Positions 1 to 9,144 of a DNA stretch of 11,529 bases are shown here, in pieces. Where the stretch lies: assembly GCA_038217285.1 (NCBI GenBank), contig JBBQPO010000202.1, positions 1 through 11,529 of the forward strand. Reading direction: 5' to 3'. The notes under the pieces are model-generated. The model was given only the letters and a program-made list of their open reading frames with translations, did not search any database and was not told where the DNA came from. The stretch comes from Chthonomonadales bacterium. Its GTDB lineage: Bacteria > Armatimonadota > Chthonomonadetes > Chthonomonadales > Chthonomonadaceae. Both the position numbers and the translations under genes were made by a program. How positions within the stretch are numbered: the first letter of the stretch is position 1; each line of letters opens with the position of its first letter.

Positions 1-38
1 GGTGATCTAGGCCGATGCCCTCTGTTCCAGGAGTGTTC
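1..38 (+). repeat. Direct repeat copy 1 (may extend beyond the left edge)
   Basis: GGTGATCTAGGCCGATGCCCTCTGTTCCAGGAGTGTTC matches 1655..1692 at 36/38 positions. Confidence 0.9.
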
Positions 39-2692: not shown

Positions 2693-3577
2693 ATGGCAGA
2701 AACAGTCAAGCTTACGGATAGAAACGATGTACGCGATCTGGTACGCGAAAAGTACGGTGCAGCGGCCCTGACGGTCTTGAACGGCGAAGGCGCGGCGTGC
2801 TGTGGCGGCAATACGGGAGGCGGCAACGATGCGTGCTGTGGCGGCGACACTATCACAGGCGGTCTGTATGACGATGTAGAAGCCGCAAGCATCCCCGAGG
2901 CGGCGCTGCTGGCCTCCCTCGGATGCGGCAATCCTACAGCGCTGGCAGCGCTCAAGGGGGGCGAAGTCGTGCTCGATCTCGGTAGCGGGGGCGGTATCGA
3001 CGTGCTGCTCTCGGCAAGGCGGGTGGGCCCCACCGGATTTGCCTATGGTCTGGATATGACCGATGCCATGCTCGCGCTCGCCGAAAAGAACAAAGCGGAA
3101 AGCGGCGCGAAGAATGTGGCGTTCCTGAAAGGGCATATCGAAGAGGTACCCCTTCCCGACAACGCGGTCGATGTCATTATCTCCAACTGCGTGATCAACC
3201 TCTCTGCCGACAAAGACGCCGTCCTGCGCGAAGCCTTCCGCGTCCTGAAACCCGGCGGACGGTTTGCCGTCTCGGATGTGGTCGTGGAGGGGGAGCTTCC
3301 TCCGGCCGTGCGTGCCGATATGGAGGCTTATGTCGGCTGCGTGGCCGGTGCGCTGGAAGTGAACGACTATCTCGCCCGGCTCGCCAGGGCCGGCTTTGTA
3401 GACGCCTCGATCGAGCCGACCCGCCGCTATACCTTCGCAGACCTGGAAGAAGCAACCTGCTGCTCTCCCGAGGTGGCCGCACTGCCTGCGGAGGAAAAAG
3501 CCGCGCTCGATGGCCGCGTTATGGGAGCTTTCATCCGTGCCGTGAAGCCGGCGGCCTCCTGCTGCGAGCCGGCGTGA
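2693..3577 (+). CDS. arsM: Arsenite S-adenosylmethionine methyltransferase (Cys type)
   Basis: Contains SLGCGNP, VLDLGSGGGID, ISNCVINL, VLKPGGRFAVSD and YVGCVAGA, the canonical ArsM Cys motifs. RBS GGGAG. Confidence 0.95.
   Translation: MAETVKLTDRNDVRDLVREKYGAAALTVLNGEGAACCGGNTGGGNDACCGGDTITGGLYDDVEAASIPEAALLASLGCGNPTALAALKGGEVVLDLGSGGGIDVLLSARRVGPTGFAYGLDMTDAMLALAEKNKAESGAKNVAFLKGHIEEVPLPDNAVDVIISNCVINLSADKDAVLREAFRVLKPGGRFAVSDVVVEGELPPAVRADMEAYVGCVAGALEVNDYLARLARAGFVDASIEPTRRYTFADLEEATCCSPEVAALPAEEKAALDGRVMGAFIRAVKPAASCCEPA
2795..2845 (+). repeat. 15-bp direct repeat within arsM encoding ACCGG twice
   Basis: GCGTGCTGTGGCGGC at 2795..2809 and 2831..2845. Confidence 0.85.
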
Positions 3578-4374: not shown

Positions 4375-4829
4375 ATGGCAACACGCATCGCCATTTTTTC
4401 GGACATCCACGCCAACCTACCTGCCATGGAGGTTACAGCCCGGCATATTCAGCAGGGCGGCTATGACGGCGTCTACTGTCTCGGCGATGTGGGCGGATAC
4501 GCGGCGCAACCAAACGAGGTTCAACAGCTCCTTATGGGAATGGGCTGCCCGACCGTGATGGGCAACTACGACGAAAGCGTTGGGTTCGAGAAAGACGACT
4601 GTGGCTGCCTCTACATCAAGCCCTTCGACATCGAGATGAGCAATATCTCGTTTCTCTGGACCCGCGCGCAGGCTACTGTGTCCTGACGCTCGACGGTCAG
4701 AATGTCAGCGCCGAGCAGGTCCGCCTGCCCTACCCGGTTGAGACCGCCTGCGAACGCCTGCTCGCGGCCGGCCTTCCCACCTACTTCGCCGACTATCTCC
4801 GAAAAGCCGGCAACGTTACACCAGCCTGA
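4375..4829 (+). pseudogene. Calcineurin-like metallophosphoesterase with internal deletion and frameshift
   Basis: The N-terminal part (4375..4670) has SDIHAN, CLGDVGGY and MGNYD. A different frame at 4659..4829 reads DPRAGYCVLTLDGQNVSAEQVRLPYPVETACERLLAAGLPTYFADYLRKAGNVTPA*, the typical family C-terminus. The middle HGSP, GHTH and GSVG motifs are missing. Confidence 0.85.
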
Positions 4830-4951
4830 GTAGACGTCAACACCGGTACGTTCTCGCCTGCCGCACCTACGAGACACCGACAGGCAGAGGCGGCGCTCCT
4901 CCCGAAGAGGCGGTTCGCGCCGCGATCCGGCCTGCGGTCTGACCTGTTCTG

Positions 4952-6739
4952 CTACGGAACGCGGGGGACGGAGAGATACGTCGTGTAACTTTCGGCCTTC
5001 ACCTTGTAGAACGGCAGAAAGGTCATCGTATTATGGTGCGTGTGGAACGTAGGAAGCCCGCCGGGGTGCTTTACAACGTCCACACCAGCTTTGCCTCCAG
5101 GAACCGAAACAGGCTTGTCGGAGAGAGCTACCAGGAGCAGTGGCCCGTAGAGCAGCGCCTGGCGGTCCGGCGTCTCGGAGGCGATGGCCTCGGAGTGCAG
5201 CGCCATCGGGAACGTGACCTGAAGCGTATCTCCCTCGTGCCATAACCGCTCCACTTCGAGGAACGTCCCCGGCACGGCCTTTACCTGCGTGACTTTGCCT
5301 CTGATTTTAACGGTTACAGGCTTCGCTGTCCAGCCAGGGACGCGCACATGCAGCGCAAAGCGCACAGGCTTTTGGGAATGCACCGTCAGCGTCGTCGTAT
5401 CTGTCTCCGGGTAGAGCGTGGTCTGCTCGACCGTGACAGCCTGCGGCCCCTCCTTCCAGTGCACCTGCGAAGGTGTGAAGAGGTTGACGTAGAGGCCGTG
5501 CGCAGCGTGGAAATAGATGTCGAGCGGATAGTCTGCGGTGATCTGTGCATACGTCCCCGAACAGCAGGGCCAGGCCGCGCCGAAGTAGGCTTTCTTGGTT
5601 CCGGAGCGATAGTTCGAATAGTAGAAGGTCTTGCCGTCCGGCTGCATGGGAAGCGTCGCGAGCATACCGTTGAAGAGGACGCGTTCCATGTTGTCGCCGT
5701 ATTTGGCGTCTCCGGTAAACCGCAGCAGATAGCGGTCGAGGTTGACGTTGGCGTAGGAGCCGCATGGCGTCTCGAAGTGGTTGTCGACGCTCTCGATGGA
5801 TTCTGCGAGCTTCCCCTGCCCCGGTGTCACGAACCGCTCGAGTGGCCCCCATCCGCCCGAAGCGTACATCTGCGTGGTGGTAAGGAACGTCCAGGCGTTC
5901 TCTATCGCCTTGAAGTACTTTTCATCGCCTGTCACTTCATAGGCTTTGGCCGCTGACAACAGGGTGTTGACATGGCTGTAGGCGTGATGGTCCGGTGTAA
6001 ACGCATTGATGCCATTTGCGAAGGGGTCGTAGTACTCCTTGCTGTAGTCGTACTCTTTCGCCATATCGAGATACCGCGGATCTTGCGTAAGCGCATAGCA
6101 GTTGTAGAGATTTTCGGGCAGCGTGTACCATTCGTCTCGTCGGCGCGGCAGGTTCTTCACCGCCCAGTCGGTCATCTGCTTGAGAACGACGAGTCCCTCC
6201 GCATTGCCGGTCAGCGTATAAGCGTCCCGCATCCCGATGCAGTTCTTATCGTAGAGGTAGTTCGGCCACTCCCGGAAGACCTTCTCGGACGAGTAGAAAT
6301 AGCCGTCTGGCGCTAAGGTTTCGTGGAAACCGTGCACCAGTCGGGCGACCTTCTCCTTATACCGCACATCTCCCGTATTGGCGTACATCCGGGCCAGGGC
6401 GGAGACATACTGCCCGAAAGGATGCGCTCCGGCGAAGCCGTCCGGATCGTACCAACCGCCCATCGGTTTGCCGGGCGCGGGAAGTCCGGCGCGTTTGCGG
6501 AAGCCGTTGAGCAGATTGTCCTCCGACAGCGATAGAAAGAAGTCGCGCGCTTCCAGGGCCTGGGTTCCCAGAGGGCCGCCTTTCAGAGTGACGTCCTGAT
6601 AGCCAAAGGGCTGCACGAGGCCCGAAGATCGGTGTGCCTCCAGAGCGACTGCCTTCTGGGCCGGGGCGCTCTGCTGGCAGAAGAGCCCTCCAGCAAGTAC
6701 AAGCAGGGCGCAAAGTCCTACTCCAGTCAACTTCTTCAT
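4952..6739 (-). CDS. Secreted glycoside hydrolase, GH127/GH146 (beta-L-arabinofuranosidase-like, DUF1680), 595 aa
   Basis: Signal peptide, then GGW...GQYVSALA, HAYSHV, YASGG, ETPCGSY, YGDNMER.LFN, WPCCSGT, LYVNLF, QTTLYP, RVPGW and YGPLLL motifs. Confidence 0.88.
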   Translation of the reverse strand: MKKLTGVGLCALLVLAGGLFCQQSAPAQKAVALEAHRSSGLVQPFGYQDVTLKGGPLGTQALEARDFFLSLSEDNLLNGFRKRAGLPAPGKPMGGWYDPDGFAGAHPFGQYVSALARMYANTGDVRYKEKVARLVHGFHETLAPDGYFYSSEKVFREWPNYLYDKNCIGMRDAYTLTGNAEGLVVLKQMTDWAVKNLPRRRDEWYTLPENLYNCYALTQDPRYLDMAKEYDYSKEYYDPFANGINAFTPDHHAYSHVNTLLSAAKAYEVTGDEKYFKAIENAWTFLTTTQMYASGGWGPLERFVTPGQGKLAESIESVDNHFETPCGSYANVNLDRYLLRFTGDAKYGDNMERVLFNGMLATLPMQPDGKTFYYSNYRSGTKKAYFGAAWPCCSGTYAQITADYPLDIYFHAAHGLYVNLFTPSQVHWKEGPQAVTVEQTTLYPETDTTTLTVHSQKPVRFALHVRVPGWTAKPVTVKIRGKVTQVKAVPGTFLEVERLWHEGDTLQVTFPMALHSEAIASETPDRQALLYGPLLLVALSDKPVSVPGGKAGVDVVKHPGGLPTFHTHHNTMTFLPFYKVKAESYTTYLSVPRVP

Positions 6740-7494
6740 CGATTTACTCTCTTTCCGGTGGTCTTACGTGCGACCACTTCCGCAACCATTACTTTTGGGT
6801 CTGTGGTTCTGGCGTTGCGCAATGCGCGAAGCAAGACCACCTCGCCAAACCCGGCGGCCCGAAACTCCTCAAGGAAAGCCCCGCTCTCCTTTGCGCCGGC
6901 AATTCAAGTGAACCAGTCAGCCGCGCTGTTTTGGCTTTCCGCAGGCAAGGGGCCGGTCAAGACAAGCTCCGCCGCATAGACAGATCCCCCTGTTTTGAGA
7001 ACGCGCGACAACTCAGAAAATATCTGCTCCCGGTAGGGATTCAGGTTGAAAATGCCGTTGATGAGGGCGACATCAATACTCGCGTCTTTGATCGGCAACT
7101 GTTCCGCGTCTGTTAGATATACGTTGACATTCGCAGCCCGCATCTCGGCTGCGGCCAGTCGGGCGCGGCCCGCCATCTCCGCACTAAAATCGATGGCGAT
7201 CACCTTGCCCTGCTCTCCGGTGCGTCTGGCCGCAATGAGCGTGTCCAGACCTGCCCCTGCGCCCAGGTCAAGAACGGTCGCTCCTGCCGGTATCCTGGCA
7301 AAGAGACTCACATTCGAGATACCGCAAAATCCTTCTACCGATGTGGCTGGGATCGTATCGAGCAAAGTAGACGGATAGCCTAAATCCTCCGCCAGGGCCC
7401 GTCCGGTGGGAAAAGGCAAATGGCGCGCGGTCTGCTGTGCGATCGAGGAATAGACATCTCTTACTCCGTCGCGGAGTGCGGTTGTGCCGTTCAT
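6736..7494 (-). CDS. ArsM-like class I SAM methyltransferase, probable selenoprotein (Sec at codon 197, TGA 6906..6904), 252 aa
   Basis: ATG 7494 with AGGAAGG RBS. Motifs FPTGRALAEDLGY, VLDLGAGAGLD, IDFSAEM, INGIFNL and VLKTGG. After DWFT-TGA the frame continues IAGAKESGAFLEEFRAAGFGEVVLLRALRNARTTDPKVMVAEVVARKTTGKRVNR*, homologous to the ArsM segment GCVAGALEVNDYLARLARAGF. The terminal TGA overlaps the GH127 ATG (ATGA). Confidence 0.88.
6871..6891 (-). promoter_or_regulatory. Candidate bacterial SECIS element of the methyltransferase
   Basis: The mRNA hairpin AAGGAGAGC-GGG-GCUUUCCUU (9 bp, one G-U) begins after 12 nt 3' of the UGA. The G-containing apical loop is at +22..24. Confidence 0.72.
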
Positions 7495-7565
7495 AAAAAA
7501 CCTTCCTGGCTCTGTCTTGAAGGAAGGATACCGGGCCAGGGTGAATAAAGCAAATACAGATTTAT

Positions 7566-7580
7566 TTATACAGCCTATAA
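7566..7580. promoter_or_regulatory. Candidate LysR binding box (T-N11-A)
   Basis: TTATA-CAGCC-TATAA dyad in the AT-rich 96-bp gap between the divergent methyltransferase and lysR genes. Confidence 0.5.
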
Positions 7581-7590
7581 GGAAAATATT

Positions 7591-8508
7591 ATGACAGAGA
7601 AATACAACCTTTACCCGCTTCATATCTTTCAGCTCGTGGCACGGCATAGCAGCGTCACCGGCGCTGCACAGGAGCTCTGCATCAGTCAACCTGCTGTCTC
7701 GTCTCACCTTAAAGCGCTGGAAGCCAGATACAAAGAGGCGCTTTTTGAGCGGACGCCGCGCGGTATGCTGCTCACGCCTGCCGGTGCGGCGGTCGCCGAG
7801 CACGCGAGCCGCATCTTTGCGCTCCTGGAAGAGATGGAAGCAGTGGTGAACGCCACACGCGGAGAGGTCAAGGGGATTGTGACCATGGCCGCCTCCAGTA
7901 CTCCTGGCGCCTACCTTGTTCCCCGGCTCCTGCGACGCTTTCAGGACCGCTATCCCGACGTGCAAGCGACACTCCTCGTCGGAGACAGCAGGGAGGTGCT
8001 TTCCTGGCTGCGAGATTACCATGCAGCGCTCGGTGTCGTCGGCGAAACGGACATGGAAGACGGACTGATCCGGGAGGAGATCGCGCAGGATGAACTGCGA
8101 CTCATGACAGCGGCGACGGACGATCTGTGTCGGAGGGAAGAGATCAAGGCGGAGCATCTTTACGGGCGTACGCTGTTCCTGCGGGAACCCGGCTCCAGTA
8201 CACGTGCCGGGGCGCAAACGCTCCTGTATGATTGGCAGAAAGACTTTGCACGGATCGTCGAACAGCACAGCATAGAAGCCATCAAGCAACAGGTCATCGC
8301 CGGGCTAGGCGTTGCCGTTCTCTCCTCCTGGGCTACCGAACTTGAAGAAAAGGCGGGTCTGCTCTGCCCTGTCCGGGATACCCGGTTTTGGCAGAGGCGT
8401 AAGTTTTACCTGGTGCGCCGCGCGGATCGCCCACTCCTCGGCGGAGCGGCGGCGCTCTGGGACTGTCTGGCCTCCTGCCCGCGTACATCCGGTGGTAGCC
8501 CTCCCTAG
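7591..8508 (+). CDS. LysR family transcriptional regulator (CysL/YeiE-like)
   Basis: HTH SVTGAAQELCISQPAVSSHLKALE...LFER...LTPAG. The effector domain has ASSTPGAYLVP, GDS and REPGSSTR. RBS TAAGGA. Confidence 0.93.
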   Translation: MTEKYNLYPLHIFQLVARHSSVTGAAQELCISQPAVSSHLKALEARYKEALFERTPRGMLLTPAGAAVAEHASRIFALLEEMEAVVNATRGEVKGIVTMAASSTPGAYLVPRLLRRFQDRYPDVQATLLVGDSREVLSWLRDYHAALGVVGETDMEDGLIREEIAQDELRLMTAATDDLCRREEIKAEHLYGRTLFLREPGSSTRAGAQTLLYDWQKDFARIVEQHSIEAIKQQVIAGLGVAVLSSWATELEEKAGLLCPVRDTRFWQRRKFYLVRRADRPLLGGAAALWDCLASCPRTSGGSPP

Positions 8509-8682
8509 CCCCACATGCGACCACCCTCTCTAGCGGTGTACTGCTGCGCTCTTTATGACTTCCCTTCTCGGCTCTACACTCGCAGGAAGAATATCGAGTC
8601 AGCGCGAACTAAAGGATAGGCAGAGTTAGGAAGGCCCACTGGCAGAACTTCGACGTTAACGGCTGGATTGAGGAGACAAACT

Positions 8683-9144
8683 ATGAGCGAACTGGTGAGC
8701 ATCGTTTACAAGCCGCGCAAGGCAACGCCTACGGAGGACGGCTATACGCGGGTGCCCCGGCAGCAGGCGCTGCTGGTGGCCGACTACGGCATCGAAGGCG
8801 ACGCCAAAGGCGGCAGCCCGAAACGCCAGCTGAATGTGATGTCGGTTCGCGCGGTGCAGGAGTTGACCGCAGAAGGTTTTCAGGGAGCGCCCGGCCAGTT
8901 GGGGGAGCAGTTGATTGTGGCGGGTGTGGAGGTGGACACCCTACCACTTGGAACTCGATTATACATCGGCGAGCAGGCCTGTGTGGAGATTGTGGAGCCG
9001 CGCACCGGCTGCGGCAAGTTCGAGCGGTATCAGGGCAGATCGCCCCAGGAAGCAGCGGGACGCATGGGTATGATGGCCCGTGTAGTAATAGGCGGGGAGA
9101 TTGCGGTCGGCGATCCTGTGAGGGTCGCAGACAGCGTCCGATGA
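8683..9144 (+). CDS. MOSC domain protein (YiiM-like), 153 aa
   Basis: GIEGD, RQLNVM, PGQLGEQL, PRTGCGK (conserved Cys) and ARVVIGGEIAVGD. GAGGAG RBS before ATG 8683. Confidence 0.88.
   Translation: MSELVSIVYKPRKATPTEDGYTRVPRQQALLVADYGIEGDAKGGSPKRQLNVMSVRAVQELTAEGFQGAPGQLGEQLIVAGVEVDTLPLGTRLYIGEQACVEIVEPRTGCGKFERYQGRSPQEAAGRMGMMARVVIGGEIAVGDPVRVADSVR

Follow-up and report, generated by a model that had tools for sequence, protein, structure and literature searches.

The gene for an ArsM-like methyltransferase in a Chthonomonadales bacterium contains an apparent stop codon that, judging from its reading frame, its homologs, and the hairpin behind it, almost certainly encodes selenocysteine (Sec). 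The gene lies on the minus strand of contig JBBQPO010000202.1 (GenBank assembly GCA_038217285.1); we refer to the whole stretch of 11,529 nucleotides as the window. By its sequence the gene is intact. Read through, it would yield a class I S-adenosylmethionine (SAM)-dependent methyltransferase with Sec at position 197. The features of the gene, all on the minus strand, are as follows.

6736..7494: predicted ArsM-like class I SAM-dependent methyltransferase, 252 amino acids with Sec197 (translation; structure model with a predicted local distance difference test score [pLDDT] of 89.8; Foldseek)
6904..6906: in-frame UGA, codon 197, at the column of CmArsM Cys224, motif U-I-A-G (UxxG) (translation, alignment)
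6739..6903: read-through tail, residues 198 to 252, with a helix (204-213) and two strands (216-225 and 235-244)
6871..6891: hairpin of the Sec insertion sequence (SECIS) type, 9-bp stem and 3-nt loop GGG (6882-6880) (folding, conservation, covariation)
7249..7275: glycine-rich SAM-binding motif VLDLGAGAG, residues 74-82 (sequence)
7054..7056: Gly147 at the position of ArsM Cys174 (NGIFNL versus NCVINL) (alignment)
7318..7326: Cys57-Gly-Ile59, with Ile at the position of ArsM Cys72 (alignment)
6736..6739: ATGA overlap of the methyltransferase end with a GH127 glycoside hydrolase gene (4952-6739)

An apparent stop codon that almost certainly encodes selenocysteine

Translation of the methyltransferase frame gave a single internal TGA (6906-6904), followed by 55 sense codons and then by a TGA (6738-6736) that overlaps the ATG (6739) of the GH127 gene. 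An earlier model-made note, drawn from the letters and their open reading frames (ORFs) and here called the sequence-only reading, had claimed that the frame continues for 55 codons in alignment with the neighboring ArsM and ends in an ATGA overlap with the next gene. Both claims were borne out, and the next gene is GH127. WFT-U-IAGAKESGAFLEEFRAAGF aligns without gaps to YVG-C-VAGALEVNDYLARLARAGF of the neighboring ArsM (2693-3577; 33% identity over 170 amino acids, E 2e-28), so that the TGA falls on the Cys of YVGCVAGA. The tail holds the conserved elements GA-KE and RNART, and its last 8 residues are not conserved. In the SAM motif, D76, G78, and G80 are invariant among the 76 aligned sequences. 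The protein as a whole contains one Cys (Cys57) and one Sec. Residue 79 of motif I (7257-7259, minus strand) is Ala in the window protein and Cys in 74/76 family members.

We modeled the read-through protein with AlphaFold2 from the 76-row alignment, using Cys in place of Sec. In the model (pLDDT 89.8), residue 197 is followed by a helix and two strands; confidence is lower at residues 181-200 (60-71). The top Foldseek matches were ArsM/AS3MT structures (E about 3e-16, template modeling score up to 0.73). The last two strands complete the sheet in class I methyltransferases. Thus, a 196-amino-acid product would be incomplete.

For homologs at the protein level, we took the best 120 of 717 matches, one of which was the window's own truncated call. 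Of the remaining 119, 114 stop immediately before the UGA position, and three (P0005, P0016, and P0020) continue with Trp at the column. One more stops three residues sooner, and the last departs from the others at residue 182. At the DNA level, we examined the codon in the best 80 of 324 confirmed metagenome loci, in six loci of related genomes, and in the window. TGA was present in 87/87 loci covering the column (window included), the other loci having 51-65% identity. No Cys form was found among those 80 metagenome and six related-genome loci; ranking by score favors loci with a good tail, but it would equally favor Cys forms. Where the frame closes within the locus (n = 80), it runs for exactly 47 more codons in 71 cases, for 48-55 in seven, and for 268-269 in two; in seven of the 87 loci it runs off the contig. 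Column conservation was 0.757 after the UGA versus 0.708 before it (76 sequences). A scan of genome contigs with this one protein as query brought up 12 distant methyltransferases but no close relative. A contig of run X1, which may be the source sample, is identical to the window over 6600-7567. Contigs of runs X2-X4 also cover the codon, with no difference at 6904-6906 among the 40 of 90 rows listed.

We then took the best 150 of 1,103 representatives (profile search at 1e-30, 50%-identity set) and placed the protein in a quick tree of 151 rows, with the alignment cut before the Sec column and short rows left out. The window protein falls in a 40-row clade (SH-like approximate likelihood ratio test [SH-aLRT] 98) of 18 TGA loci and 22 representatives. 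Among these representatives, 17 stop at the column and 3 fall short of it; 2 have Gly there, and none has Cys. Two short representatives outside the tree have Arg and Trp at the column. The closest sister clade has Cys there (DWFRCIGGA); its six rows lie within the enclosing 60-row clade (SH-aLRT 97 in this quick tree). Like the window protein, members of this Cys clade (P0134, P0137, P0138, P0142, and the gene of genome G285) have Gly at the Cys174 position, FPxG and RNART motifs, and a tail of equal length. They differ in having Cys for Sec, in their distance (the G285 gene has 37% identity), and in that some are fused to ArsR or to a cysteine desulfurase-type domain. We found no family name for this clade. 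The pattern that the sequence-only reading had named as a check, homologs with TGA or Cys at the column and conservation on both sides, matches the loci with DNA and the sister clade. Its claim of a Sec-dependent methyltransferase cut short by gene callers also fits the truncated protein records, the Cys of the sister clade, and the Sec machinery of the genome.

That machinery is complete. The genome, itself 95% complete, contains selA, selB, selC, and selD, each above cut-off, which had been a further check on the claim. It also encodes a tRNA-Sec with anticodon UCA, and its selD has its own in-frame TGA followed by an 8-bp G-loop hairpin. TGA is the commonest stop after long frames (661/1520). 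No UCA-anticodon tRNA other than tRNA-Sec turned up, and the anticodon of the tRNA-Trp found is CCA. Because TGA is so common a stop and tRNA-Trp has CCA, this is not a genome in which TGA means Trp.

The hairpin 3' of the UGA, with the 9-bp stem and G loop described from the sequence, is present at 6891-6871. Its stem pairs 6891-6883 with 6879-6871 (one G-U pair, -11.3 kcal/mol), and its loop starts 21 nt past the UGA. For bacterial SECIS elements, the legend of Fig. 2 in PMC13188914 gives a loop of 3-9 nt, a stem of 4-16 bp, G in the first two loop positions, a distance of 16-37 nt from the UGA, and a minimum free energy of at most -7.5 kcal/mol. The window hairpin falls within all four published constraints (3 nt, 9 bp, GGG, 21 nt, and -11.3 kcal/mol). 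The stem also covaries. In 83 distinct 45-mers, 91.1% of the cells of an 8-pair stem were paired and 16 cells were changed on both sides, figures that 0/500 shuffles reached in either case; slid-register controls were 47-64% paired. Counts of pairs and of pair types, two further measures, did not stand out (105 and 119 of 500 shuffles). Kinship among the sequences can inflate this test, and the structure was derived from the same sequences. The loop and wobble evidence is independent of these caveats. The first loop base is G in 83/83, while the encoded residue varies (Gly, Asp, or Val). Compared with codon use in the same genes, wobble positions of the stem favor bases that pair: the Phe/Leu codon ends in C in 80/83 (background TTC, 56%), and Lys is AAG in 68 versus AAA in 5 (background, 54%). 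In the window's 9-bp stem, the outermost pair is not conserved (16/83). Across the genome, 1.15% of 22,172 sampled TGA triplets precede a stem of at least 9 bp with a G-led loop at the same spacing.

Some of these results add little to the case for recoding. The energy of the hairpin, taken alone, is not exceptional: 15/200 shuffles of a 31-nt piece fold equally well (z -1.58), and three longer pieces gave z values of -0.10 to 0.51 versus shuffles. Conservation, in the TGA column and the stem covariation, is the stronger evidence. selA was found in all 7 genomes carrying the TGA form and had no match in G285, which has the Cys form and is 84% complete. However, selA occurs in 34/42 genomes of the family, and since it is so common there, this co-occurrence is weak evidence and only consistent with recoding.

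We considered whether the TGA is a true stop giving a 196-amino-acid protein, or whether it arose from misassembly or by nonsense mutation of a pseudogene. Databases do call the 196-residue protein (P0002), and the genome does use TGA as its commonest stop. However, the TGA is shared by 86/86 other loci whose tails are as conserved as the rest, a stop at 196 would cost the predicted fold a helix and its last two strands, and the X1 contig shows no difference over 6600-7567. This explanation is very improbable. Equally hard to credit is that the UGA is read as Trp, Gly, or Cys through another code or plain read-through. Trp stands at the column in P0005, P0016, and P0020, which are known from protein records alone, and among the 50%-identity representatives two have Gly, one has Arg, and one has Trp. 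Yet TGA ends ordinary genes in this genome, its only UCA tRNA is tRNA-Sec, all loci with DNA have TGA together with a SECIS-type hairpin, and in the sister clade the residue is Cys rather than Trp. Gene calling under a TGA=Trp table may account for the Trp forms; none of the Trp-column proteins matches an examined locus above 67%.

One ortholog is decayed. In G032, of the same genus, the gene (L141 3259-3600) has an interrupted 5' part and lacks about 55 middle codons; its TGA and hairpin are kept.

Residues at the positions of the ArsM cysteines

All four Cys residues of ArsM are needed to convert As(III) to trivalent monomethylarsenic [MAs(III)], Cys174 and Cys224 form the binding site, and trivalent dimethylarsenic [DMAs(III)] is held by Cys224 alone (PMC6138428). 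Human AS3MT is described with the same pattern, dimethylarsenic (DMA) binding one Cys (PMC3877260), and in CmArsM and human AS3MT alike the first two methylations are reported to require the equivalents of both Cys174 and Cys224 (PMC6138428, PMC3877260).

Alignment to CmArsM placed Cys44 at Thr30, Cys72 at Ile59, Cys174 at Gly147, and Cys224 at Sec197. Gly occupies the Cys174 position in 76/76 sequences, position 59 is Val, Ile, or Thr in 76/76, and none of the 76 has Cys at the Cys44 or Cys72 column. Cys57, the sole Cys of the protein, is two residues off the Cys72 position; it occurs in 5/76 and is not conserved. The protein thus has the ArsM fold and an equivalent of Cys224, and it lacks equivalents of Cys174, Cys72, and Cys44. 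Since the three lost positions are Thr30, Ile59, and Gly147, canonical arsenite methylation should not be assumed, and by these residues the methyltransferase fails the canonical ArsM test. The label "ArsM-like" from the sequence-only reading stands for the fold and the Cys224-equivalent residue and does not extend to the other three cysteines.

A possible sulfur or selenium methyltransferase

In the alignment, Sec197 is the only conserved sulfur or selenium side chain at the ArsM metalloid site. The enzyme is therefore most likely single-site. We tentatively favor, as a reading that may well hold but is far from assured when taken whole with its substrate class, a Sec-containing single-site enzyme of ArsM fold that captures reduced sulfur or selenium species on Sec and then methylates them. 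In this proposal, SelB would bind the hairpin 3' of the UGA and deliver Sec-tRNA, giving the 252-residue methyltransferase. Sec197 would be the single reactive residue beside SAM, and its substrate would be singly coordinated. The selenolate would pick up a reduced sulfur or selenium species that it binds singly; candidates are persulfide or perselenide sulfur or selenium supplied by a carrier (desulfurase, TusA, or rhodanese), or else methylthiol or methylselenol. SAM would methylate the captured species, and a cellular thiol would presumably release the methylated, volatile product.

The substrate class is suggested by neighbors and fusions involving cysteine desulfurase, TusA, and rhodanese. 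We scanned neighbors with NCBIfam, covering 145 of 153 selected proteins in 61 loci (56 of the 80 metagenome loci; median locus, 2.9 kb) and taking the best five hits per protein. Genes of sulfur- or selenium-handling type occur in 12/56 metagenome loci with scanned neighbors. They include a putative selenate ATP-binding cassette (ABC) transporter binding protein or close relative (over cut-off in L053; below it in L068, L080, L094, L100, and L122), cysteine desulfurases (L087, L099, and L110), ArsR-rhodanese fusions (L080 and L109), TusA with DsrE2 beside the methyltransferase (L081), and a sulfide:quinone reductase fragment (L064). A Pfam scan for fusions in 28 longer or Cys-bearing representatives found, among relatives with Gly at the Cys174 position, one fused to a class V aminotransferase/cysteine desulfurase-like domain and three fused to TusA-like domains, of which one scored below the Pfam cut-off. 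There was also one fusion each to ArsR, MerC, and DsbA-like domains.

Several observations count against this proposal. The fusions sit in the Cys-bearing sister clade or more distant clades and none in the window clade. The 12/56 count includes related loci, has no background control, and rests on model matches that are mostly below cut-off. No neighbor family is general across the branch in the loci compared. Recurrent neighbors include heavy-metal regulators and efflux genes (copper ATPase, resistance-nodulation-division [RND] metal efflux, and chromate efflux), L084 has an arsenosugar-type glycosyltransferase over cut-off, and the window's own ars operon lies 2-4 kb from the methyltransferase gene. 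In addition, a Thermus enzyme with a single Cys (TtArsM) is reported to methylate arsenite (PMC8649762).

The TtArsM report also bears on an arsenic reading of the Sec enzyme, which we regard as somewhat unlikely. Here Sec197 would bind an organoarsenical by single coordination, DMAs(III) for example, or would bind As(III) or MAs(III) assisted by glutathione, Cys57, or a partner protein. The nearest solved structures by sequence and fold are ArsM/AS3MT, the Sec stands at Cys224, which by itself holds DMAs(III) in the accounts cited above, an arsR-arsM-aquaporin operon shares the window, and the P0124 representative joins a Cys174-type ArsM domain to a Gly174-type domain. However, the partner Cys174, needed with Cys224 for the first two methylations, is Gly in 76/76 sequences. 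None of arsC, acr3, arsB, arsD, and arsH appeared among the best five matches for the 145 neighbor proteins (61 loci), the regulator beside the gene is of the LysR and not the ArsR type, and in G021 the LysR-methyltransferase-GH127 block of contig C80 has no adjacent ars operon within the 11 kb read. A different substrate for the Sec enzyme, either a soft metal or metalloid (Sb, Te, Bi, or Hg) or a methyl acceptor served through a methyl-Sec intermediate, seems unlikely. The recurrence of metal efflux genes and heavy-metal regulators, the MerC fusion in one Gly174 relative, and an Rv1681-type radical SAM gene in three loci are consistent with it, but no single neighbor family is conserved across the branch, and nothing found points directly to any such substrate.

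The sulfur/selenium reading can be extended to the clade. A widespread, almost Sec-only clade of ArsM-fold descent may have given up arsenite and become a sulfur or selenium methyltransferase that, by means of its single Sec, takes sulfane sulfur or selenium from carrier proteins and methylates it. We consider this broader statement doubtful.

Relation to catalogued selenoproteins

Recoding in ArsM-like proteins is already catalogued and is not new. PMC13188914 lists "Arsenite methyltransferase, NF008823, UxxG, 1 Sec" as experimentally verified, citing Fomenko 2007; the entry is of the NF008823/PRK11873 type with representative WP_011987699.1, and the family also appears in PMC9312934 and PMC5029168. 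PMC13188914 also credits three fusion selenoprotein families, ArsM_AhpD_UU, MTase_UXPK_star, and ArsM_DUF2284_UU, to Haft and Tolstoy 2025. By its sequence, the branch of the window protein is Sec-dominated and clears no NCBIfam cut-off among ArsM-like models. We found no literature account of a branch without the other ArsM cysteines, although key papers and supplements may already describe it, and the deep-Sep main text does not mention "methyltransferase."

The catalogued Sec arsenite methyltransferase shares with the window protein an ArsM-like domain, one Sec, UxxG, and a single-domain layout, as the catalogue describes it. However, the window protein scores 164.3 bits against NF008823, below the cut-off of 263, whereas the neighboring ArsM scores 338.9. 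It also lacks equivalents of Cys44, Cys72, and Cys174. Its best-scoring models are those of the fusion families, NF041537, NF047649, and NF041536 (161-182 bits over model positions of about 12-228), which share UxxG with it according to the table of PMC13188914. Scores stay below their cut-offs (NF041537, 182/510; NF047649, 172/460; NF041536, 161/575 bits), and the window protein has neither a second domain nor a second Sec, its frame closing 55 codons past the UGA. A related "type B" domain scores higher on the fusion models (197-219 bits). Canonical ArsM/AS3MT proteins (CmArsM 4fr0/4kw7/6cx6, CrArsM 5evj, human AS3MT 8xt7, and the neighbor at 2693-3577) share the fold, the SAM motif, and the Cys224-equivalent position. 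The window protein differs in its identity to them (about 25% to the solved structures, 33% to the neighbor), in its separate clade in the quick tree, in having three of the four Cys absent and Sec for the fourth, and in lacking the C-terminal ArsM extension.

Two-domain forms occur in G021. There the methyltransferase forms an in-frame fusion with another ArsM-like domain, of a different type (SFAGVGNP / SNGVLNL / LWTG-U-IAGAL), that carries a TGA and a hairpin of its own. This tandem, two-Sec protein of about 520 amino acids is present in two copies (L136 5014-6570 on C80 and L135 6278-7850 on C224) and clears the NF008823 cut-off only through the sum of its two domains. The two domain types are adjacent genes in L054, and the second type stands alone in G020.

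Significance

If the sulfur/selenium reading is true, the enzyme would represent an unrecognized bacterial route to volatile methylated sulfur and selenium compounds, its synthesis would be tied to selenium supply through UGA recoding and the LysR regulator, and metagenome surveys would miscount the clade as truncated arsM. Database records truncate hundreds of proteins of the branch at residue 196 and label many of them "arsenite methyltransferase" without the arsenic-binding cysteine pair; such records can inflate arsM counts in environmental surveys. A methyltransferase with Sec as its only conserved sulfur or selenium residue would also offer a clean test of the role of Sec in a SAM enzyme, with the canonical Cys ArsM 3 kb away in the same genome as a control.

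Neighboring genes and other observations

Next to the methyltransferase gene are a divergent regulator and a tentative promoter.

7591..8508, plus strand: divergent LysR regulator (best NCBIfam model, selenium-metabolism-associated LysR, below cut-off at 191.9 of 250 bits)
7525..7553, minus strand: tentative sigma70-type promoter (TTGCTT-17 nt-TATCCT), found by eye and similar in three related loci

The LysR protein is the probable regulator of the methyltransferase gene, and the pairing recurs in G021 (twice), G007, G101, and L061. Two other LysR genes of the genome outscore it on the same model. The promoter scanner did not list the TTGCTT/TATCCT site, which was below its threshold. A conserved intergenic CATAA..CCTTAT dyad was considered as an operator; we dropped this reading, as the start codon and ribosome-binding site of lysR account for the dyad. 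Functional coupling with GH127 as a family property was also rejected, the genes being adjacent in 1 other locus among those compared.

The ars operon of the window (arsR, arsM, aquaporin, and a broken metallophosphoesterase) converges on the GH127 gene, and its ArsM, about 3 kb from the methyltransferase gene, has the three-cysteine motif. The metallophosphoesterase gene that closes the operon (4375-4830, plus strand) stops in frame at 4686, with a plausible C-terminal piece in another frame; the break looks like an internal deletion. A MOSC-domain gene, of a sulfur-carrier-related fold, follows LysR (8668-9144, plus strand). In L053, L084, L127, and L128, a recurrent block of an Rv1681-type radical SAM gene and a small protein stands beside the methyltransferase. 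L084 also has glycosyltransferases and a second radical SAM gene, and its block may be a biosynthetic cluster.

The window contains a second probable selenoprotein. On the minus strand at 93-710, with a TGA at 437-435, the ORFs 435-710 and 93-368 would join by read-through into a 205-amino-acid TlpA/ResA-like thioredoxin-fold protein (WTFG-U-INC, UxxC); a 6-bp hairpin with loop AGUUA follows the TGA. A thioredoxin-fold gene in G000 (C110 11068-11538), with a stop at the first Cys of its motif (WDYG*GFC), likely encodes a further selenoprotein. Finally, a 38-bp direct repeat (36/38 identical; window 1-38 and 1655-1692) flanks the TlpA-like and TetR genes, and the contig starts at its first copy.

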